A stretch of 57,837 nucleotides of DNA from an uncultured virus (IMG/VR IMGVR_UViG_3300044557_000566) (IMGVR_UViG_3300044557_000566), one strand, 5' to 3'. Counted from the first letter of the stretch, positions 14,697 through 57,837 are shown. Notes: generated by a model not told the origin, from the letters alone. Numbers and translations: made by a program.

Positions 14697-14892
14697 TCCC
14701 TAGTTACGTCGGGATGATCTGACTGCTAGCACGTCAAGACACCGTCAACGAGGTAATCTCAATGGCAGCATGCTAACAGTATCCTCTCATTAATGGTAAT
14801 CTTTACCAGCGCGGAATGCAACTATCACTCAGCGTGAAGCATCTCAAGTGGAATTGGGACTGCGGCCGTGGATTAGCACTGGACAACCCTCC

Positions 14893-15007
14893 CAGACGCA
14901 TTCCATGCCGCCTTAGACGCTCGGCCCGTCACGGCATGTGTTTTTTTACTCACCTGGTCCACGGGGCGTTAGAACGCATCCTCCGCGCTCCTAATGCATT
15001 GCGCCCC
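14893..15007 (+). repeat. Long repeat family R2, copy 1
   Basis: cagacgcattccatg-ccttagacgctcg...gcatgtgtttttttactcacc...gcgttagaacgcatcctccgcgctcc; other copies at 19416-19531 (-), 36077-36174 (+) and 37021-37133 (-). Confidence 0.9.
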
Positions 15008-16053: not shown

Positions 16054-17574
16054 TTACTTCAACCGCGCGTTCTGGAGTCCATAAGCGCGGTTATGATTGG
16101 TGCCACGAGCACTGGGCTCGTCCATCTCGTCAAGCAGCTCACCGACATAAGTCATGTCAACAGCGTCCTCGTGGAACGCCTTCCTCTCATAGACCAGTCT
16201 GCTCATGTCAGCATGATCTAGAACATAATCTAGAGCGGACTCATCTTCAAGATCACGTGGACGAGCATCGTCATCCCCGTGAGTGATCCTGCTCTCAAGT
16301 ACGTGACGGAGACGCTTCACGCGGAGATACCTATCCGACTTCACCTTGGCCATGTACCCGTCACGGCTATAGATCACGACGCCCTCACGATCTGACCCAT
16401 GAGCACGATTGATAGCATCAGCTAACTCCTCGCGATTGCTAACGACCTCAGATCTTCTAATGTCCTCATTCCTCCACCCAATTCCATTCATGATCTCATC
16501 GTCAGCATCACGATCAATGCTGAACACTGAATCGTTCCTGACGCAGTGAATGAAGAAGCATTCCGAGTGGTCGTATGGAATGATGTGCCTATCAGAATTA
16601 TGGTCAATGATCTCGCACGCGATCGTCACGTCATGATCATAGATAACGTCATGCACCCTCTTGATGAGGGCGGGATCGTTACCGAGCTGGTTCCTGAACG
16701 CCTCATCGACCAGAGCAGAGTAGTCCGTCTGTCCACTCTTCGAGTAGAATCTAAGAGTCCCATCACGACGCGCGCCAATGAGTCCAAGGAACCCGTTCTG
16801 CTTCAACTCCACGGTTGCTGGATACCTGACTCTGTCAAGAACCTTCTCAAGGGTGGTCTCATCATTCTCCCCAATATTGAAGAACTTGTCGAATCCACGC
16901 ATGACGACTCTTCCAGAATGATCTAGGAATAGGCCGCGCGCCTTTGAGGAGTACTCATCCCAATCATGATTGTAGAACGCCCTGCGGGTGAAGTTGCAAG
17001 CGTAGACATCATCCTCGCCCTCGACCTTCTTCACCCTGACATTGCGATTAGCCGCCATCTTAACGAGGAGGTTGCTGTCATTCTTGAGATCATTAACCGT
17101 GAACGGTATGGTATCCTCAAGACGGGAGTACTGTCTGCGAACATACGACTCGGGAACACGATCGTCCTCTGGGCGGGTCTTATTCCTCGCTACGAGATCT
17201 TCCAGCGGAACGTCAGTCAAGTCTTCAATCCTGACGTCAGCATGAGCTCTGGTCGCCAGGTCAACGAGGCCTTTAAGATCGGGTATGGCGATGTTCTGAG
17301 CGTCAAAGATCACACTCACTCCAGCCTTGAGCAGTCTTGACGCCAGGTCACGAGCGGAATGGACTATGACGTCTTCACCGTTCTTTCCAACACCCTCGTT
17401 CCTGGTCTTTAAGAGCTGCCATCCCTGACGAGATCCTCCCAGCATGGTCCTCATCGAGTCGTATGATACGATGACCGAGCCAGTCTTCCTGGACAACTCG
17501 CGGGCTCGCGTGGTCTTACCGCTCCCAGGAAGACCCCTCATGATCGTGAGCGTGGTCTTTTCAAACTTCTTCAT
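16054..17574 (-). CDS. Polynucleotide kinase (AAA_33) fused to a T4 Rnl1-like RNA ligase
   Basis: N-terminal MRGLPGSGKTT and RN..R...VPE; C-terminal KARGLF, FDKFFN, ELKQNGFLG (motif I), EGVV and KVKS. Confidence 0.85.
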   Translation of the reverse strand: MKKFEKTTLTIMRGLPGSGKTTRARELSRKTGSVIVSYDSMRTMLGGSRQGWQLLKTRNEGVGKNGEDVIVHSARDLASRLLKAGVSVIFDAQNIAIPDLKGLVDLATRAHADVRIEDLTDVPLEDLVARNKTRPEDDRVPESYVRRQYSRLEDTIPFTVNDLKNDSNLLVKMAANRNVRVKKVEGEDDVYACNFTRRAFYNHDWDEYSSKARGLFLDHSGRVVMRGFDKFFNIGENDETTLEKVLDRVRYPATVELKQNGFLGLIGARRDGTLRFYSKSGQTDYSALVDEAFRNQLGNDPALIKRVHDVIYDHDVTIACEIIDHNSDRHIIPYDHSECFFIHCVRNDSVFSIDRDADDEIMNGIGWRNEDIRRSEVVSNREELADAINRAHGSDREGVVIYSRDGYMAKVKSDRYLRVKRLRHVLESRITHGDDDARPRDLEDESALDYVLDHADMSRLVYERKAFHEDAVDMTYVGELLDEMDEPSARGTNHNRAYGLQNARLK

Positions 17575-19415: not shown

Positions 19416-19531
19416 GGGGACGCAATGCGCTAGGAGCGCGGAGGATGCGTTCTAACGCCCTGTGGGCCCGGTGAGTAAAAAAACACGCGCCGCGCATGGT
19501 CGAGCGTCTAAGGCATCATGGAATGCGTCTG
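19416..19531 (-). repeat. Long repeat family R2, copy 2 (inverted relative to copy 1)
   Basis: ggagcgcggaggatgcgttctaacgccc...ggtgagtaaaaaaacac...cgagcgtctaaggcatcatggaatgcgtctg. Confidence 0.9.
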
Positions 19532-19608
19532 AGGTGCATCTGTGTCATCCTTGAGCAAACAGTCAATGCAGAATCGTATTGATCGATCAGCCGTCATGCT
19601 ATCGTGAA

Positions 19609-26822: not shown

Positions 26823-26851
26823 GCAGGTTCAACCCCGCAACGCGAAGACTC
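26823..26851. repeat. Solitary degenerate CRISPR repeat
   Basis: gcaggttcaaccccgcaacgcg (26823-26844) matches 57438-57459 at 21 of 22 nt. Confidence 0.75.
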
Positions 26852-26927
26852 AAGGCAACACGCGCGCCATGAGAACAACAAGCTGCGTGTCTTGTGTTAT
26901 AATGAAATTGTTCTCAATCATATGTGA

Positions 26928-31034: not shown

Positions 31035-34000
31035 TCATGATCGTTTGACCAACTGCGAGAGCGACGATCGCATTTTTGAAGATATCCTCACGCTAGACGT
31101 GATAGCGTCATCTCTTACTGACGCCTTCATACTGCCGTCCATGATTGACCTCACGTCAGCGTCAAGCGCTTCCTCCCTGAACAATCCCATGTCATTGACC
31201 AATCGTCGACCTGCTTCTCTCCCTCCCCACGTGTCAAATATCGAGTGGAATCCACTAGTGCTAATCATCATGCTCTTGTACAGTCCGACCACGATGCTAT
31301 CATCTTTGAGAGCATCATCTATCCTCGATTCAACCGTGTGGTACTGCGGTGTAAGCTCATATCCACGTCCGCGGAGCATGTTCATCAACGGCCGTATGAC
31401 CTGTGCTGGTTTGACTCCATCGGAAAGGCCGGGTATCACGTCATCATGATTGTTGGCAGAAACCAACCCCAGGGTGACGAGATCCCTATTCCTCATGATG
31501 ATGCCCCTCATAGCGTCCACGTCACCGCTAGTGACCCTATGGGCTTTCCTGTGAATGATGCCAGACTCGGATAGATCGCTGATAATAGAACTGTTCAGAG
31601 ATGACACGTCTCCAGACTTGAGGGCAGACGCCACAATGCGACCCTCCTGTCTGATCTTCTCCAGCTCAAGCGCGTTAGCGTGATTGTTGACCACGTTCTG
31701 CGCTATCAGCCAGCTATCGTCATCTTGCCTATTAGATGAAGATCCACTCCCCCTCTTCTTTGATATAGCCGAGGCCTTCTCGTTCACGTATGACCTCAGC
31801 ATGGACATCTTCTCCCTCTGTGATGCATCCCTGTACCCAGTGAAACCGGAATTCGTCTCCTTCCTCATAGCCTGATCAGCACTGTCTAGAATCGATGCCG
31901 TCACAAGATCCTCAGTGCTAGTGATCGATCCAGTGGAGAGGTCAGACGCTAGTCGTGAGCCGATCACCGAACCATTCTCATCATACATCTTAACCGTGGT
32001 GTCATCTGGCTCGATCCTCATCCCCTTCAGGGTCTTGGCCGTAACGCTCCTCTCGAATCTTGTCACGCCGTACAGTGTAGACAGAGTGAGTCCAGGATGC
32101 AGCTCTTGATCGTTGCCGTCGATAGCCCGTGGAATGATCACGTGGCCAGTTACCTTACCAGGATCTTTAGGGTCAATCCGGGACGCTCTTCCAATAGCCT
32201 GGGTGATGGCTCGCTCTGATGTCTTCCCCTTGTCACCAATGACCACGGTGTCGATCGTATCCACGGACACGCCCTCGCTCAGGATGTCCACGTTGGCCAT
32301 AATGTTCTTATGCGGATCCCACCCCCTCGTATTCCTACGAGCCCTCGTGAAGAACTTGCCGATCTTATCAGGTTTACGCTCCCCCTCGGTTGACTCTGAG
32401 GTCACTGAGGTGACGTTCGCGTTCATGGCGAGCAGGTGCAGCCTGGCTGCCCTCCTCCTACCCGGGTCACTGGAATCCCTGTCGATCATGGCCTGCCTGT
32501 CCGTGATATCACCAGACATGCTCATGACCACATTCTTGAAATGATCCCTGAAATCGTTTGACCTCCTGATTCCACCACTGCCACCTCCGCAGTACGCTAG
32601 AACATTATGGCTGGGATTCACTCCATCATCTTGATCTGACACTAGAGCGTTAGCCGTGGAGACTATGCTAGCATACGTGTCCACATCCATTCCACGTCTA
32701 TGAGGGCTATACGCCTCATTAGCCGCACGTGGATCCCTATCTGGCGCAATATAATCCCCATTATCATCAACGAGCCCAGATTCCAATTGTCCTCCCGGCT
32801 TCTTACTCCCGCCACCGATCCTCACCGGAATCATCTGGTAGTCAGCGCCTGCGAGATCATGATGGTCAACGGCTTCATTCTTCGATATGAACCCGCTGAC
32901 GCGCCCAACCACGGCTGAATCAGTGGAGTACACGACCATCCTGGCGCGATCATCATCATCCATCTCTAGCGCCCTTCTCTTAAGATCATCAATGGCCGTA
33001 TCTTGACTCTTCACGTCAGGCGGCTGATCACTTGTGGACTCCTGGATGACGGGGGTTGCTGTCATGTAGAGTCGATGAGACGCGAGCATTGATCCTGGTA
33101 TCCTGTTATCAAAGCTCCTGTAGCTCTGGACGCCCTCGTCAACCGGATCATTAACAGCGTCACCATCGTCAACCGCATCCTCATCATCGGCAGGACCGCT
33201 CGACCCGGTGGTCTTACTAGGAGCATTCCTCTGACCTAGAATATTATGGGCTTCATCATTGATGAGCAGGACAGCCTCCGCGTTCAGATGGTCTTCCTCA
33301 GCGATCTGATTCTGTATCTGCGCAATGCGACCAGAACTACGGTACGTTGACACGAGTATGATCCTCCGACCATGCATCATGTCATCAAGCATCCTCTCCT
33401 TGATGATGCTATTCGATATCTTACCGTTCTTATCCTGGACTTCCTTAGATGACGTGTCAATCTCGATCACGTCCACATCGTGCCCGCCATCCCTTATAGC
33501 GGCCGACTTCTCGTAATCCTTACTCGTACTATCGGCTAGAGCGACGGAACTCGTGAGCACAATACCAATACCGGTGGAGCCCGGCTCGCCCATCATCCTA
33601 GCCATGAGCTGCCTGCCCATGTACGACTTACCGGTTCCACACGCGGCCACAAGCTGCGTCTTCCCCTCTTCATGGAGAGCGTTGGCCGTCTCATCCATTG
33701 GTCCAGGCTGGATGTCCTTTGGAGGCCATTCGCCCCTAGGAGTCATGTGACCATCGCCATCATCTTCCATACCAAGATTACCGTAATAGTAACCATTTCT
33801 GAACATGGAGCCATCCCACGATCCGTCTTGAGGATCTTTGTCATTGACCCCGCGCTTACGCAATGTTTGATCGCGACCTACTCTAGAATAGGCGGCCTCA
33901 TTCCTCTCCTCGGCCATCCCCCTGGTAAGAAGCTCATGGGAGGAATGGGGGCACCTGTACTTGCCGACGTTCTCTGGCCTAGCATTGCACGGACTCCAGG

Positions 34001-34142
34001 TGCCGTCGGGATTCTCACCATACCTCTGCTTCACGTCTTCCCCTCGCTGTACGGGATGACGCTCGTCATGACTAGAAGAATGTTCTCGTAACGTTGCCTC
34101 AACCTTCTTCATAACAGCCATGACCTCCTCAATACTGAGCAC
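31035..34142 (-). CDS. SF2 DEAH-box helicase (Res / type ISP-like motor) with N-terminal Cys motif
   Basis: AACGTGKS, STYRS, NDEAH, MTATP, NVDILSEGV and QAIGRASR. Confidence 0.85.
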   Translation of the reverse strand: MLSIEEVMAVMKKVEATLREHSSSHDERHPVQRGEDVKQRYGENPDGTWSPCNARPENVGKYRCPHSSHELLTRGMAEERNEAAYSRVGRDQTLRKRGVNDKDPQDGSWDGSMFRNGYYYGNLGMEDDGDGHMTPRGEWPPKDIQPGPMDETANALHEEGKTQLVAACGTGKSYMGRQLMARMMGEPGSTGIGIVLTSSVALADSTSKDYEKSAAIRDGGHDVDVIEIDTSSKEVQDKNGKISNSIIKERMLDDMMHGRRIILVSTYRSSGRIAQIQNQIAEEDHLNAEAVLLINDEAHNILGQRNAPSKTTGSSGPADDEDAVDDGDAVNDPVDEGVQSYRSFDNRIPGSMLASHRLYMTATPVIQESTSDQPPDVKSQDTAIDDLKRRALEMDDDDRARMVVYSTDSAVVGRVSGFISKNEAVDHHDLAGADYQMIPVRIGGGSKKPGGQLESGLVDDNGDYIAPDRDPRAANEAYSPHRRGMDVDTYASIVSTANALVSDQDDGVNPSHNVLAYCGGGSGGIRRSNDFRDHFKNVVMSMSGDITDRQAMIDRDSSDPGRRRAARLHLLAMNANVTSVTSESTEGERKPDKIGKFFTRARRNTRGWDPHKNIMANVDILSEGVSVDTIDTVVIGDKGKTSERAITQAIGRASRIDPKDPGKVTGHVIIPRAIDGNDQELHPGLTLSTLYGVTRFERSVTAKTLKGMRIEPDDTTVKMYDENGSVIGSRLASDLSTGSITSTEDLVTASILDSADQAMRKETNSGFTGYRDASQREKMSMLRSYVNEKASAISKKRGSGSSSNRQDDDSWLIAQNVVNNHANALELEKIRQEGRIVASALKSGDVSSLNSSIISDLSESGIIHRKAHRVTSGDVDAMRGIIMRNRDLVTLGLVSANNHDDVIPGLSDGVKPAQVIRPLMNMLRGRGYELTPQYHTVESRIDDALKDDSIVVGLYKSMMISTSGFHSIFDTWGGREAGRRLVNDMGLFREEALDADVRSIMDGSMKASVRDDAITSSVRISSKMRSSLSQLVKRS

Positions 34143-34278: not shown

Positions 34279-35325
34279 CTATGATAGTGGAAGATCCTTC
34301 CTTGGAATCCACACGGGGGAGGACGGGGCCCACGGAACATCCTCCATATCCATGATGAGACCAGCATCCGTTCCATGGATGAGGTCAAACAGCACGTCAT
34401 CATCTGGGAGCACAAGATAGGGAGGCCTCCAGGTGACCTGTGACCCGAACGCCTTGATGGCATCATATGGTCCACTCGCCCCATCAAGATCAAACTCCCC
34501 GCTAGAAGCAAGATACGCGATCGGGTACGTCCAGTTCCATATCGCTCGCATGGGAAGCCATTCCGTCAGCCATCTCATGAACCCGTGGTCCACGTTCAGG
34601 GGAGCATAGTTGATCGCGTCATCCCTATTAGACGCGGTCACCTGGTGGGCTTGCTTCGATATGAGATTATTCGCTATGTGAGCATCCCTGCTCACGGACC
34701 TCAGGGTGAAGTTATCCCTGAACTGGATAAGCGTCTTACCATTCAAAGACGTATCGGGCCATGAGACCACGAGCATCGCGTTACTCGATATAGGGATGAG
34801 GAGTTTGTCATCATCAGCATCCCACGCATACCCCGAGTCATTCAAGATGAAGTTCCTGTTCGTCCTCATGATAGCAATGCTAGCCGTGGAGAGAGCGGTC
34901 AGGGTGGCCGCGAAGATCATGATTCTCGTCGCATCCGGATCTAGCTGATAGCAGCAACGATACCATTCCGTGCGTGAGAACTCGTAGTGGGCGAACCTGT
35001 CCCTGGCAACGAGCCCAGCTATATAGGGCTTGAGGGAGAACCAGTACGACTTACCGTTGATCGAGTTGCCACCAGCCCGTATCGTACCTATGACGTTAGA
35101 TGCGAACCCCTCATAACCCCTCCAGGAGTCATCGAGATCCTTACCGTAGATGTTATTCTCCCAGTAGTACTTACCGCTAGCCCCGGAGTGAATGATCAGC
35201 CCGTCCATCGTGTTGATCCATGCTGAGTTATCGTCATCATTGAACCCGCTGACGATGAACCTGGGCACAACGTGCTGTCGATTGCATACGGGAGTAATGA
35301 CGCCGTGGCTCCTCTTTATAGACAT
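34279..35325 (-). CDS. DUF4238-like protein
   Basis: N-terminal RQHVVPRFIVSGF, later FILND and LIPISS motifs; GGAGG RBS. Confidence 0.65.
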   Translation of the reverse strand: MSIKRSHGVITPVCNRQHVVPRFIVSGFNDDDNSAWINTMDGLIIHSGASGKYYWENNIYGKDLDDSWRGYEGFASNVIGTIRAGGNSINGKSYWFSLKPYIAGLVARDRFAHYEFSRTEWYRCCYQLDPDATRIMIFAATLTALSTASIAIMRTNRNFILNDSGYAWDADDDKLLIPISSNAMLVVSWPDTSLNGKTLIQFRDNFTLRSVSRDAHIANNLISKQAHQVTASNRDDAINYAPLNVDHGFMRWLTEWLPMRAIWNWTYPIAYLASSGEFDLDGASGPYDAIKAFGSQVTWRPPYLVLPDDDVLFDLIHGTDAGLIMDMEDVPWAPSSPVWIPRKDLPLS

Positions 35326-35363
35326 GTGAAGACACCTCCCATTATCCCTTAATCTATTCTAGG

Positions 35364-35457
35364 TAATGAACCCCGCATAAACGTGGAATACATATAATTG
35401 ACAAACGATTTCATTATAACATAAGGTGGGATGAACCCCCGCATAAACGGGGAGTAC
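35364..35457 (-). CRISPR. Two-repeat mini-array of a variant type I-E-like repeat with one spacer of about 36 nt
   Basis: atgaaccccgcataaacgtggaatac (35366-35391) and gggatgaacccccgcataaacggggagtac (35428-35457); period 65; resembles the terminal array repeat. Confidence 0.6.
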
Positions 35458-35677
35458 ACTGGGAGCACGAGGAGATCCCAGTGTACTGAAATTATCAGTA
35501 ATGCGCATCGAGCATGTTCTTCATTAAACAGTTATATAAAGTTGTACCACATCATATATTCGCCTTATCTGCGAATAGGAGTCGCAATGAGCATTACTGG
35601 CCATCATTGGCGTGTCGTGATCTTATCCGGGTTATGATAATCACGTCAACAAAACGTGACAAGGAATAGGATTCATC

Positions 35678-35941
35678 ATGAGTGTAACGGTAAAGCCAAA
35701 GTCCTCCGCGAGAACGTACACGATCATCAAGATGCACCGTGGCCGCGTCTCAAAGCAAACGGGGACAATCCAGGAGCTTATCGAGTACTTCCATTACACC
35801 CTCGAATGCGGTAACGGTTGGAATCACAGCATCTCGCTCAACCCGCGCGGCGGGAGGGCGCTCGTGAACGCGCTTAACAAGTGCGTCCGCGAGCTGCAGG
35901 GCGGGTGCTTCAACCAGGATCACTACGAGCTTGAATCTTGA
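35678..35941 (+). CDS. Small phage-type hypothetical protein
   Basis: 87-aa ORF with TGATAAT promoter and AGGA RBS upstream. Confidence 0.7.
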   Translation: MSVTVKPKSSARTYTIIKMHRGRVSKQTGTIQELIEYFHYTLECGNGWNHSISLNPRGGRALVNALNKCVRELQGGCFNQDHYELES

Positions 35942-35966
35942 TGATAGTAAAACCCTAGGATAGGAT

Positions 35967-35992
35967 AATCGCCCCGCGCCAGCGGGGCGATT
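35967..35992 (+). terminator. Perfect 11-bp GC-rich hairpin after ORF 35678..35941
   Basis: aatcgccccgc-gcca-gcggggcgatt. Confidence 0.55.
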
Positions 35993-36076
35993 CCAATTCG
36001 GGGCGGGGTGACGCGGGTTGCTAGGCTCGTGAGCGCCCATCACGCGGCAATCCCGTGGGGGTGACCCCAAGCACGC

Positions 36077-36174
36077 CCCAGACGCATTCCATGACCCTTA
36101 GACGCTCGATCTATCATGGCATGTGTTTTTTTACTCACCTGTGTTTCGGTGCGTTAGAGCGCATCCTCCGCGCT
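36077..36174 (+). repeat. Long repeat family R2, copy 3
   Basis: ccagacgcattccatgacccttagacgctcg...gcatgtgtttttttactcacctg...gcgttagagcgcatcctccgcgct. Confidence 0.9.
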
Positions 36175-36193
36175 TCCATTCTGAACCGCTTGT

Positions 36194-36607
36194 TCAATGG
36201 AATAGAATCTTACGCACCTCGTCTACGCTCCCAGATGCTGCTGATAGTGCAACGCTCACGAGATCATCCACCGTGTACCCGCCGGTGGACAGCCCCTGGT
36301 ACTCCATAAGAGTGAGCCCAGCCACGAGAGCAGTCCGCTTGTTACCGTCCGGATAGCAGTGTCCTGTGGCAATGCGCACCATGAGGTCGACGATCTGGTC
36401 TTCAGCATTCTCATACTCCCTCGAGGCGAAGACAGTATAGCAGACCGCGTTAATGCCGTCGATCGATCTACGTGGAGTCAGGTTGAGACCAGCGCTAGCA
36501 GACAGTGACCCGTCGTGGGCAGCAGTGATGATGCTCACAATGGAATCAAGATCGTCATTACCGTCCACAGATAGGGGTGCGATCGTCCTATCCAGCATTA
36601 CTCTCAC
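36194..36607 (-). CDS. doc: Fic/Doc family toxin
   Basis: HCYPDGNKRTA Fic/Doc motif; 137 aa. Confidence 0.85.
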   Translation of the reverse strand: MRVMLDRTIAPLSVDGNDDLDSIVSIITAAHDGSLSASAGLNLTPRRSIDGINAVCYTVFASREYENAEDQIVDLMVRIATGHCYPDGNKRTALVAGLTLMEYQGLSTGGYTVDDLVSVALSAASGSVDEVRKILFH

Positions 36608-37020: not shown

Positions 37021-37133
37021 ATGGAAGACGTTCTAACGCGCCATAGACGCACTTTTCCCCACGGGAGTATTTTTTTCACACGCCTTGACGGTACTTGCGT
37101 CTAAGGCGTCATGGAATGCGTCTTAAGTGCATT
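37021..37133 (-). repeat. Long repeat family R2, copy 4 (inverted, diverged)
   Basis: cgttctaacgc...gagta...caca...gcgtctaaggcgtcatggaatgcgtct, matching 19447-19530. Confidence 0.75.
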
Positions 37134-37636
37134 CAGGCATGAATCCAGAAGTGATCTACGTCTAAACCCTCGAAGACTCGCCTATTAACGATGATTTGTG
37201 GATACCATCATGTAACGATAAGATCATCACATATGGTCGATGGGGTTATTAGAGGAGTAGATTATGGGAGACATGACGAATCGTGATCATTGGAATCAGG
37301 ACGATTACTGGAAGTCGCTAGAGCGATCATTCAACAAGACGTTCATCAAATCTGTACGAGCAGGGGATCACCCCGAACGACTTCCCCTCATGGACGAGGA
37401 GCCAGACGACCCAGCTGCGCCCAATGGTGATCATTAACCATGATGATAATCGTGCGCGCCGCGTAAGACCATCTGCCGCAATGAGAACAACCGTTAACTA
37501 ACATTGCGTCTATCCTAGACGGGAATAAGGCCACCTCGAATAGTAAGCGTCTCAGCGCCCTGATGGCAGCATATGATCACATCAGGGGCTTGTTAGTTCT
37601 AAGAGGATCGACGGTACACGATCGGGACTAGAAGGC

Positions 37637-39429: not shown

Positions 39430-39597
39430 TGTAATATCCTCTTCCTCACATAAATTGACAATGACTCCATTGTATCACGGTTTTAGAATCATGGACAACT
39501 CACTTGTCTTCCATAATGCTCGATTATGTACTTATAGGTGTCATTACCTCAGACCCTTCGGACGATGCTTGATGTCTTTTATCTTACGCATGATCTT

Positions 39598-55964: not shown

Positions 55965-56017
55965 TCAATAGTGATTCCTACCGGCATGTCTTGCACTCGA
56001 TCCTGTACTCAAGATCA

Positions 56018-56066
56018 TTATCCCACGTTTATGCGGTGCTCATCTCACGTGTTATAATGGAATCGT
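56018..56066 (+). promoter_or_regulatory. Degenerate CRISPR-like repeat joined to an extended -10 promoter
   Basis: ttatcccacgtttatgcggtgctcatctcacgtgttataatggaatcgt aligns with the minus strand of 35405-35457. Confidence 0.6.
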
Positions 56067-56083: not shown

Positions 56084-56530
56084 ATGGTAACCCATCGGAA
56101 AGGAATCGTCATGTCCAAGCAGGTCTTCAAGTTGAATCACGCGGGAGTGAATTACGGAGTGGAATCAAAGGTGTACAGGGTTGATAGGAATAGCCTGGAG
56201 GGTTTAGTCAATCTCATCATTGATAGCCTCGATACCTCCCCATTCAATCCACGGCAGATGGAGTTCGAATCGTCCGTGTACAGTCTGGTGGTCATGTACT
56301 CGGAACAACTTGCTGCTGCTTCCGCTAATGACGAAGATGTTGTTTGGATTGACCCCCGGACGTTATCTATAGACATCGTCCATCGGTACGTCGCCAAGAA
56401 TAATTTTGTTGATTATGGATCCAAGAGGGATGACGCAGCATGGCTGTCTGCTTGGAATCAACACTGCAGGGAAGCATTGCCGTCAATCGTGGTCGCCTAT
56501 GAGTACAACCTAGATCATAACAACGATTAG
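56084..56530 (+). CDS. Hypothetical protein
   Basis: Likely start MSKQV after an AAAGGA RBS. Confidence 0.7.
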   Translation: MVTHRKGIVMSKQVFKLNHAGVNYGVESKVYRVDRNSLEGLVNLIIDSLDTSPFNPRQMEFESSVYSLVVMYSEQLAAASANDEDVVWIDPRTLSIDIVHRYVAKNNFVDYGSKRDDAAWLSAWNQHCREALPSIVVAYEYNLDHNND

Positions 56531-56557
56531 GGATGAACCCCGCATAGATGAAAATAT
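56530..56557. repeat. Solitary degenerate CRISPR-like repeat (variant type)
   Basis: gggatgaaccccgcatagatgaaaatat versus gggatgaacccccgcataaacggggagtac at 35428. Confidence 0.6.
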
Positions 56558-57301: not shown

Positions 57302-57328
57302 GATGAACCTGCAGAAATCGTGAAATAC
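57302..57328. repeat. Highly degenerate CRISPR-like repeat (variant type)
   Basis: gatgaacctgcagaaatcgtgaaatac versus aatgaaccccgcataaacgtggaatac at 35365. Confidence 0.4.
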
Positions 57329-57440
57329 AGCGGTAATCCTCCCTCACACATACCACATGGATAACTGATGTCGTCCACATCATTGTCGGCAAATCCTCGA
57401 TATCATCCCCAGGATGACAATACCAGGTCAATCATCAGCA

Positions 57441-57837
57441 GGTTCAACCCCGCAATGCGGGGAATACTTTGACAACCCTAGGCTAAGCCAACAAGCGTCT
57501 TGGGTTCAACCCCGCAATGCGGGGAATACTCCACATTGTCAACAATTTTTGTCCATCTGTAGTAGGTTCAACCCCGCAATGCGGGGAATACCATCGTTCA
57601 TAATTCCTCCTAGAATGCCATGCTCGGGTTCAACCCCGCAATGCGGGGAATACAGATCATACTCGTATGATCATACAAGAAGGAGATAGGTTCAACCCCG
57701 CAATGCGGGGAATACCAGCTGGTTCTCAATTCCTCGTCTATATAGATTCAGGTTCAACCCCGCAATGCGGGGAATACGAATGTATCATCGTATGCTACAT
57801 CTGTATCATCAGGGTTCAACCCCGCAATGCGGGGAAT
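57441..57837 (-). CRISPR. Type I-E-like CRISPR array, 7 repeats and 6 spacers visible, cut by the window end
   Basis: Identical 27-nt ggttcaaccccgcaatgcggggaatac at 57441, 57503, 57565, 57627, 57689, 57751 and 57813 (last truncated); period 62; six unique 35-nt spacers. The reverse complement GTATTCCCCGCATTGCGGGGTTGAACC has the type I-E hairpin layout; strand is inferred from that. Confidence 0.97.

Follow-up and report, generated by a model that had tools for sequence, protein, structure and literature searches.

A predicted phage promoter between two ectopic type I-E CRISPR repeats upstream of a DUF4238-like gene

Results

The window analysed here is a stretch of 57,837 nucleotides (nt) from an uncultured virus (IMGVR_UViG_3300044557_000566), and it corresponds to bases 361869-419705, that is, to the end, of a 419,707-bp phage record. 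The subject of this study is a small block in which two repeats, similar to those of type I-E CRISPR systems, enclose a spacer-sized segment in front of a gene for a DUF4238-like protein. All features of this locus are read on the minus strand, and window positions 35539-35326 make up the module in the 5' to 3' direction; positions are those of the window unless given as genome positions or in kilobases (kb) of the genome. A first-pass annotation had described the block as a CRISPR mini-array with a promoter as its spacer and had offered two explanations, namely, that one guide RNA represses a class of the phage's own promoters, or that the spacer is the promoter of the DUF4238-like gene and the inner repeat a Cas6-cleavable leader element.

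At its 5' end the module has a conserved upstream segment of 54 nt that ends in TGATAATTTCAG (35486-35539); it has two copies only in the genome, the other one, identical at 45 of 54 positions, being part of a paralogous module at 264 kb. The -10-like motif TGATAAT (35497-35491), called by eye, marks a putative promoter, P1. It is followed by a hairpin with a 12-bp stem (AGTACACTGGGA / TCCCAGTGTACT) and an 11-nt loop (35453-35487), the arms of which (35453-35464 and 35476-35487) are 100% complementary, just as the first-pass annotation had it, and are paired in the minimum-free-energy fold. This hairpin overlaps the first 5 nt of the outer repeat, R2 (35457-35428), which reads GTACTCCCCGTTTATGCGGGGGTTCATCC(C) and combines an intact I-E-type hairpin with a variant 3' handle, TTCATCC(C). 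With a covariance model of the phage repeats (437,837 bases searched), R2 scores 39.9 bits (E 2e-8); its calculated fold is at -12.3 kcal/mol, as compared to -14.2 kcal/mol for an array repeat, and at up to 3 mismatches it has one site in the window and none in 100 shuffles. The A/T-rich 36-nt 'spacer' that comes next (35427-35392), whose sequence had been quoted exactly, is the predicted promoter P2, with the core TGTTATAATGAAATCGT at 35421-35405 and the -10 hexamer at 35418-35413. The inner repeat, R1 (GTATTCCACGTTTATGCGGGGTTCATTA, 35391-35364, handle TTCATTA), lies 66 nt from R2, start to start, and 13-15 nt downstream of P2, in the leader of the predicted P2 transcripts; an A.G mismatch in its stem marks it as degenerate, but the same model still recognizes it at 32.4 bits (E 3.5e-6), so that the presence of two variant I-E-like repeats around the spacer is borne out.

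P2 points toward the DUF4238-like gene, with 96 nt between its TGT and the ATG. The 38-nt 5' untranslated region that separates R1 from the gene (35326-35363) contains GGGATAAT (35348-35341), which is common to the 264-kb module, and a Shine-Dalgarno sequence, GGGAGG (35340-35335). The gene itself (34279-35325, ATG at 35325) encodes 348 amino acids (aa) with a weak similarity to DUF4238 (PF14022, E 7.1e-5, 22.8 bits against a cut-off of 27), and no PADLOC or PHROG match was obtained for its product. The next co-directional gene (31035-34142) encodes a superfamily 2 helicase of 1035 aa with ResIII and Helicase_C domains (phrog_16, DNA helicase).

The spacer is a predicted promoter of a family that recurs in this phage, and its look-alikes reflect the consensus of that family. 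Namely, the core TGTTATAATGAAATCGT differs by one mismatch from the family consensus TGTTATAATGGAATCGT, for which the genome has 15 sites at up to 2 mismatches, as compared to 0 in each of 5 mononucleotide shuffles, and 23 sites at up to 3 mismatches, as compared to 0-2 in 5 such shuffles. Of the 15 sites, 11 were flagged as intergenic, and most are found a few tens of nt upstream of a start codon with a Shine-Dalgarno sequence (spacing by inspection). The look-alikes that had been quoted at 26895, at 56050 and, more loosely, on the minus strand at 39477 are real, and the similarity is far above chance; that said, it is the resemblance of one promoter class, the very outcome that the first-pass annotation had named as speaking against its proposal. 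When P2 is set against 19 other members and near-members, the 17-nt core agrees at 12-16 of 17 positions, while the 12 nt upstream, which include the would-be seed next to a protospacer-adjacent motif (PAM), agree at 2-7 of 12; the 23 nt downstream agree weakly, with scores of 4-13, the highest of them for the promoter at 26895. Apart from the locus itself, no part of the genome matches the spacer exactly over more than 14 nt, the stretch in question being TGTTATAATGAAAT (spacer positions 9-22), inside the promoter core. Finally, in a search that covered the phage genome, the only matches of the spacer were the phage's own promoters.

Several candidate targets of a guide were considered and set aside. 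Seed-anchored scans with this spacer and those of four other mini-arrays gave chance-level matches only, and no convincing alignment to the cas operon promoter was found for any mini-array spacer, in the manner of a CreR target, the best scores being 7-11. A partial site on the minus strand at 37239 agrees at 24 of 38 positions, 6 of them among the 8 bases that precede the core, but is itself a weak member of the promoter family, with 0.2-0.4 such sites expected by chance according to our estimate. At its 5' end, the trailer spacer of array 1 matches 14 nt of a coding region at genome 222418, which was attributed to chance, since such matches are found for about 10 of the 75 array spacers.

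Repeats accompany other promoters of the family as well. In particular, 4 of the 15 family promoters (genome 64222, 65607, 397289 and 417918) are preceded on the same strand, no more than about 85 nt upstream, by a repeat or a half repeat, the gap between the two being 7 nt at the present locus, 5 nt at window 56016, 2 nt at genome 64209 and 84 nt at genome 65494. At two of those, the present locus and genome 65634, a repeat also stands between the promoter and the start codon. A second unit of a repeat followed by a promoter is found on the plus strand at 56016-56066, where a decayed solitary repeat (56016-56046; 31.2 bits, E 7.8e-6) precedes a perfect TGTTATAATGGAATCGT (56050-56066, 0 mismatches) and a gene at 56084. 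Elsewhere, a degenerate TTGAACC-type repeat on the minus strand (26825-26854; 27.8 bits, E 8.1e-5) and a family promoter with 2 mismatches on the plus strand (26895-26911) lie 40 nt apart on opposite strands.

On the minus strand at genome 244.5-253.5 kb, the phage has a complete type I-E cas operon, in which Pfam recognizes Cas3 (HD domain, E 4e-40), Cse1 (E 2e-74), Cse2 (E 6e-7), Cas7 (E 2e-112), Cas5 (E 1e-33), Cas6e (E 3e-40), Cas1 (E 2e-16) and Cas2 (E 5e-23); Cas6e and Cas5 are each encoded once in the genome. The canonical repeat, GTATTCCCCGC(G/A)TTGCGGGGTTGAACC, has 80 listed copies in three arrays of 30, 24 and 26. Array 3, however, spans the ends of the record, and 2 of its 26 copies are counted twice, which leaves 24 unique repeats; its trailer-proximal part is on the minus strand at 57440-57837 (repeat GTATTCCCCGCATTGCGGGGTTGAACC, 62-nt period) and continues at the start of the record (genome 1-1148). 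What the record shows as a 'direct terminal repeat' amounts to 89 bp of array 3, in the order repeat-spacer-repeat, and the assembly is therefore a circle that was broken inside a CRISPR array, without true terminal repeats. Repeats of type I-E consist of a stem-loop and an 8-nt 3' handle, as a comparison with those of Escherichia coli and Streptococcus illustrates. Here, the base 3' of the 27-nt array repeat is T or C for 73 of 75 spacers, and we therefore take the repeat to be 28 nt long, with the 8-nt handle TTGAACCY and spacers of 34-35 nt. None of the 75 array spacers matched any sequence compared in this analysis, and about 10 of them match the phage's own genome over 14 nt.

Arrays 1 and 2 form parts of operons. 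Array 1 connects the cas operon to dnaE (Pol III alpha), which begins about 43 nt past the last variant repeat. Array 2 contains, between two canonical repeats and like a giant spacer, a co-oriented gene of about 0.9 kb (L023:8227-9160, genome 331.2-332.2 kb) that shows a weak match to the prepilin-type N-terminal methylation motif, with 20.9 bits where the Pfam cut-off is 21.2.

Seen against these arrays, the locus has the parts of a type I-E mini-array, namely, at least two homologous direct repeats and cognate cas genes in the same genome, and its spacer, at 36 nt, is array-like in length when compared to the 34-35 nt of the 75 array spacers (8th handle base counted with the repeat). An array-type leader was not found at the locus: the three arrays and a locus at 17.7 kb share a leader that ends in TCAACGTTCCTAGG, to which the segment upstream of the block is unrelated. 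All three arrays end in variant units, array 1 with TTCGTCC and then TTCATCC, array 2 with two TTCATCC units and array 3 with one decayed copy, and the block therefore has the form of the terminal unit of an array.

The block is also one of many repeats outside the arrays. The covariance model, built on 20 repeat variants and used at E <=0.01, gave 100 matches, of which 80 are the array repeats and 20 are extra-array copies in 10 regions. In the window, these are the copies at 26825, 35362/35428 and 56016. In the rest of the genome, there is a single canonical-type repeat behind a conserved array leader, without a spacer, at 17.7 kb (L006:17722-17800), an array that is 'empty' or has collapsed; four copies interspersed with small genes at 63.7-65.7 kb; three copies behind array 1 at 242.1-242.3 kb; two in the paralogous module at 264.1 kb; two between co-oriented genes for tRNA-Thr and tRNA-Ile at 314.3 kb (L022:10271-10363); two behind array 2 at 331.0 kb; and two at 343.2 kb. 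Weaker partial copies are present at genome 64179 (E 0.024) and 64209 (a half repeat) and on the minus strand of the window, at 56530-56557 (a half repeat that retains the loop, the 3' arm and TTCATCC and lies where a plus-strand gene has its 3' end; 13.5 bits, E 1.4) and at 57302-57329 (a TTCATC-type repeat that has decayed, within the array 3 trailer). Most extra-array copies carry the handle TTCATCC, which is exact in 8 full copies, as opposed to TTGAACC in the arrays.

By inspection, nine extra-array copies, in 8 of the 10 regions, are followed, within about 60 nt, by the start codon of a co-oriented gene, by a gene for a tRNA or by a promoter with a gene behind it. The distances are 20 nt to a small open reading frame (ORF), 12 nt to a small membrane ORF, ~43 nt to dnaE, ~52 nt to a gene for a Dda-like helicase, 48 nt to tRNA-Ile, ~61 nt to an 85-aa ORF, 20 nt to a polynucleotide kinase/phosphatase gene, 38 nt to the DUF4238-like gene and 40 nt to a 148-aa ORF.

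The Dda-like helicase gene leads to the closest parallel of the locus, which is one of two paralogous modules of ~210 nt; the other one, at genome 264040-264250, precedes a gene for a Dda/PIF1-like helicase. Between the two, identity amounts to 45/54 in the upstream segment with TGATAAT, 19/32 in the 5' hairpin, whose counterpart is partly conserved, 18/29 in the outer repeat, 11/37 in the spacer and 23/28 in the inner repeat, while further upstream it falls to the background level (51/155). The spacer of the 264-kb module is 29 nt long and contains only a TATAAA element. There, the inner repeat folds at -10.4 kcal/mol and the outer one lacks the canonical hairpin, that is, the repeat that is intact is the opposite one from the present locus. 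What is conserved, then, is an upstream segment and a hairpin in the leader, rather than a spacer with its upstream repeat, and for this reason one hairpin in the leader fits the pair better than a guide does.

A number of further observations concern the surroundings of these elements. The window contains a gene set typical of very large phages (ribonucleotide reductase, NrdI, thioredoxin, RNA ligase/kinase, two ClpP and one Clp ATPase). Some 0.7 kb upstream of the locus and on the same strand lies a gene with a Doc/Fic-like toxin domain (36194-36607; Pfam Fic, E 1e-5; phrog_577, Doc-like toxin, E 7e-11). A G+C-rich hairpin, CCCCGCGCCAGCGGGG (35961-35985), whose arms match those of the CRISPR repeat stem, is located just 3' of an 87-aa plus-strand gene; it is not scored as a repeat by the covariance model and is probably a terminator. 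No Rfam family reached the gathering threshold in the window, and a permissive search of 35250-36250 gave a chance-level match only. Contigs from four RNA runs, which carry no transcript starts, ends or strand, break at the repeats, as expected of repeated sequence.

Among the other repeat regions, the locus at 63.7-65.7 kb (L009:6700-8700) contains four small genes without an assigned function and two family promoters, among which six repeats or half repeats are scattered over both strands, and it looks like a degenerate array that bears genes. The mini-array at 314.3 kb consists of two identical repeats, GTATTCCCAGCGTAGAGGGGTTGAACC, whose stem has two mismatches. The gene behind the 343-kb mini-array (L248:1378-2637, genome 341877-343136) is polynucleotide kinase/phosphatase-like (phrog_8238, E 2e-63), and a kinase-RNA ligase is also encoded in the window (16054-17574); such enzymes act on 5'-OH and cyclic-phosphate ends of the kind left by Cas6 cleavage, which may be a coincidence. 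Finally, an intergenic element of ~110 nt is dispersed in at least 18 copies (36060-36180, 14890-14995, 19431-19549 and 37040-37130 in the window, and at least 14 other genome sites), several of which, at 1.3, 18.0, 63.6 and 242.4 kb, stand beside array leaders or ectopic repeats. Its consensus includes AGACGCATTCCATGACGCCTTAGACGCTCGA, then CGTGTTTTTTTACTCACCTGG, then GCGTTAGAACGCATCCTCCGCG, and no consensus fold was found for it.

As for the distribution of the phage, sampled words of a 9-kb stretch were present at 57-98% in ten bioreactor-sludge runs and in smaller shares in dust, wastewater and lake-water runs. The matching contigs are mostly 90-99% alike, and diverged strains of the phage therefore exist. 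A metagenome scan returned mostly terminal repeats of bacterial arrays, along with one distant element that has a Cas1 of 44% identity and, behind an array, a homologue of the kinase gene at 27% identity. A search with Cas6e found 4 proteins, namely, the phage's own and 3 relatives on short contigs.

Discussion

We propose that the type I-E repeats of the phage itself gave rise to the locus, an ectopic block of two repeats, in which a promoter of the TGTTATAATGGAATCGT family, placed between the repeats, drives the DUF4238-like gene and the helicase gene, while the repeats act as RNA hairpins; in our judgement, the chances of this being so are about even. Transcripts from P2 or from the putative P1 would then carry one or two Cas6e-type hairpins in their leader, and the single Cas6e of the phage would bind and cut such leader and junction hairpins, setting RNA ends and linking the fate of the RNA to the Cas proteins. 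The likely Cas6e site at this locus would be the outer repeat R2, reached from the upstream promoter, with the inner repeat decaying. A cut 3' of the stem of R2 (35436|35435) would yield an upstream piece that ends in a hairpin and an mRNA that starts with a 5'-OH handle, and one may recall here that, in the part of the Racr study available, the 5'-OH product of Cas6f cleavage is described as the more stable species (PMC10651486). More speculatively, Cas7 or Cascade on the handle ends could affect translation, since ribosome-binding sites lie 12-61 nt behind the handle. Units of a repeat plus a promoter may, in addition, behave as composite hairpin/promoter cassettes that are copied round the genome.

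A much wider version of the same idea would be that the phage has repurposed its I-E repeats as genome-wide RNA signals, by which Cas6e, and possibly Cas7 or Cascade that assembles on 5' ends bearing TTCATCC, would process and control mRNAs and tRNA precursors. The set would include dnaE, the two helicases, the polynucleotide kinase, the array-embedded gene and the DUF4238-like gene, and the units with a promoter between repeats would be the portable form of such Cas6e-based control. At this breadth we consider the idea rather unlikely.

Several findings weigh against a role of the repeats as RNA hairpins. To begin with the folds, R1 folds weakly (-4.6 kcal/mol, z -1.1), and, given its degeneracy as well, cleavage of R1 by Cas6 is doubtful. 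Of the second explanation in the first-pass annotation, therefore, the anatomy of a promoter followed by a leader repeat fits and recurs at other loci, while the cleavable inner repeat does not hold up well. The solitary repeat at 56016 is essentially without a hairpin (-1.8 kcal/mol), and by inspection about 6 of the 20 extra-array copies, including R1, have broken stems. No stem covariation was detected: the number of pairs in which both partners had changed was 0, and the share of paired cells, 95.4%, was no different from that in shuffles. Moreover, the copies at 17.7 kb, 63.7 kb and window 26825 (209 nt from nrdF) have no co-oriented gene closely downstream, the distance from repeat to start codon varies from 12 to ~61 nt, so that the geometry is not fixed, and in a gene-dense phage an intergenic element will often precede some gene anyway. 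Nor were close relatives found. In the viral collection, the DUF4238-like protein had one distant locus (33% identity over 63 residues), Cas7e had no relative, the TTCATCC pattern matched two unrelated terminator-like hairpins only, the leader pattern gave 0 matches and the repeat pattern hit one unrelated stretch; among GenBank phages there was no close relative, the best Cas7e identity being 41%.

Could the repeats, then, simply be functionless leftovers of collapsed or duplicated array ends, with the promoter as the only part that matters and with recombination at the repeats shuffling the cassettes? We regard this as somewhat unlikely, although a good deal about the locus is in keeping with it. 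All three arrays end in TTCATCC-type units, two of them in exactly two such repeats, like the block itself, several copies are degenerate in different ways, stem covariation, as noted above, is missing, and the locus at 17.7 kb provides an instance of a leader with one repeat left. Indeed, doubling of an array's terminal unit is what Shmakov et al. propose, in the part of their paper available, for the origin of mini-arrays (PMC10120712). Other traits of the copies, on the other hand, speak against it. By inspection, about 14 of the 20 keep a G+C stem of 5-7 bp, the 7-nt handle TTCATCC, which a hairpin could do without, is exact in 8 full copies, and the copies are situated on the transcribed strand beside gene starts. 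What is more, the copy in the trailer of array 3, the only one without a co-oriented gene behind it, is the most decayed, albeit this is a single case. The position of repeats directly downstream of promoters also brings to mind RNA decoys of the Racr type, that is, promoter-driven repeat RNAs that soak up the Cas6e or Cas7 of a host or of a rival I-E system. In the accessible part of the Racr paper, this position is the described signature of viral solitary repeat units (PMC10651486), and among predicted promoters it is seen here for P2 and R1, for the putative P1 with the hairpin and R2, and for the promoter at genome 65607 with the repeat at 65634; the handle, too, differs from that of the phage's own arrays. 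Yet a phage with cognate cas genes would have its own Cas6e bound by such decoys, the repeats are fused to the leaders of protein and tRNA genes instead of standing alone, and no bacterial array with a TTCATCC handle was present among the 120 matches listed or in 401 genomes of the order to which the closest bacterium with such repeats belongs. Arrays with a TTGAACC handle were found in Parasutterella muris and in a gut metagenome-assembled genome. All in all, decoys strike us as improbable.

Even less probable, and by our estimate very much so, is a regulatory guide of the CreR/CreA or Cracr type, in which a processed RNA in Cascade represses a partly complementary phage or host cas promoter. 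The architecture would suit a guide, in that the upstream repeat is intact, the spacer is 36 nt long and the distal repeat is degenerate, a spacer resembling a promoter is what a promoter-targeting guide should look like, and viral mini-arrays that target cas promoters are described in the available part of a recent preprint (10.1101/2024.10.29.618823). The pattern of similarity, however, is the wrong one: it is confined to the 17-nt core, with the would-be seed agreeing with sister promoters so poorly (the 2-7 of 12 positions given above), and a guide that represses sister promoters is therefore unsupported. Furthermore, no seed-anchored partial target was found in the phage genome or at its cas promoter, the spacer is not kept in the 264-kb paralogue, whose upstream repeat is broken, and the locus, at 397.2 kb, is ~144 kb from the cas operon rather than within or beside the cas locus. 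The first explanation in the first-pass annotation, one guide for a class of promoters, is thus not upheld.

Returning to the proposal of a promoter-bearing block whose repeats act as RNA hairpins, it is instructive to compare it with known systems. Liu et al. (2023) reportedly studied CRISPR mini-arrays including CreR and CreA, and PeSLs are said to be composite terminator/promoter cassettes of T4-type phages. The standalone repeats and mini-arrays covered by the part of PMC10120712 available, CreR and CreA included, share with our locus two repeat-like units, a spacer-sized segment and a degenerate distal repeat, the appearance of a copied terminal unit of an array, and cognate I-E cas genes in the genome. 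For our locus, in contrast, no PAM-proximal partial target was found, and its location is not near the cas operon, so that seed match and position, on which CreR and CreA are defined, both point away from them; its spacer, moreover, is a consensus promoter aimed at the next gene, and it belongs to a set of 20 copies genome-wide. Racr (Camara-Wilpert et al. 2023, PMC10651486), judging by the part of that paper available, resembles it in that viral CRISPR repeats stand outside arrays and directly behind predicted promoters. This virus, in contrast, has its own matching Cas6e and Cascade, its repeats are fused to the leaders of protein and tRNA genes and no matching host repeat is known, so the two defining traits of Racr, mimicry of a host and a virus without cas genes, are not found at the locus. 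Cracr arrays (10.1101/2024.10.29.618823) provide another phage-borne I-E mini-array with a promoter-related spacer; as far as the available part of the preprint goes, however, their spacers match host CreR or cas promoters from the PAM-proximal end, while here the spacer agrees with the promoter consensus of the phage itself, and not in the seed. In design, although not in sequence, the PeSLs of T4-type phages (PMC4122927, in the part available) come close, with a stem-loop and an early-type promoter repeated intergenically and plausibly spread by recombination; in the present case, the stem-loop is the CRISPR repeat of a phage-encoded system. Finally, the phage itself resembles those in a survey of huge phages (PMC7162821), which, in the part available, deals with phages of >200 kb with their own CRISPR-Cas systems and arrays. 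There, almost all phage systems are without Cas1 and Cas2 and the arrays are compact, with a median of 6 repeats, whereas this phage has Cas1, Cas2 and Cas3, arrays of 30/24/24 repeats and scattered ectopic repeats.

Keyword searches of open-access full texts found no account of CRISPR repeats that serve a virus in the leaders or junctions of its own genes, nor of a promoter in spacer position, which is not proof of absence. In the parts of the sources available, three readings of ectopic CRISPR repeats are current, namely, regulatory guides (CreR/CreA), decoys (Racr) and viral guides for counter-defence (Cracr). The locus suggests a fourth, directly testable design, in which repeats are placed in the leaders and operon junctions of a virus with a matching Cas6e and a standard promoter occupies the spacer position. 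If Cas6e does not cut there, the locus would still document the decay and spread of array ends as promoter-carrying cassettes, and would serve as a warning that a promoter-like spacer is no evidence for a guide. If, on the other hand, Cas6e does cut there, CRISPR RNA processing would have been recruited for general viral gene expression, and, should the repeats indeed serve as RNA signals throughout the genome, the CRISPR machinery would be a post-transcriptional regulator of the virus's own genes.

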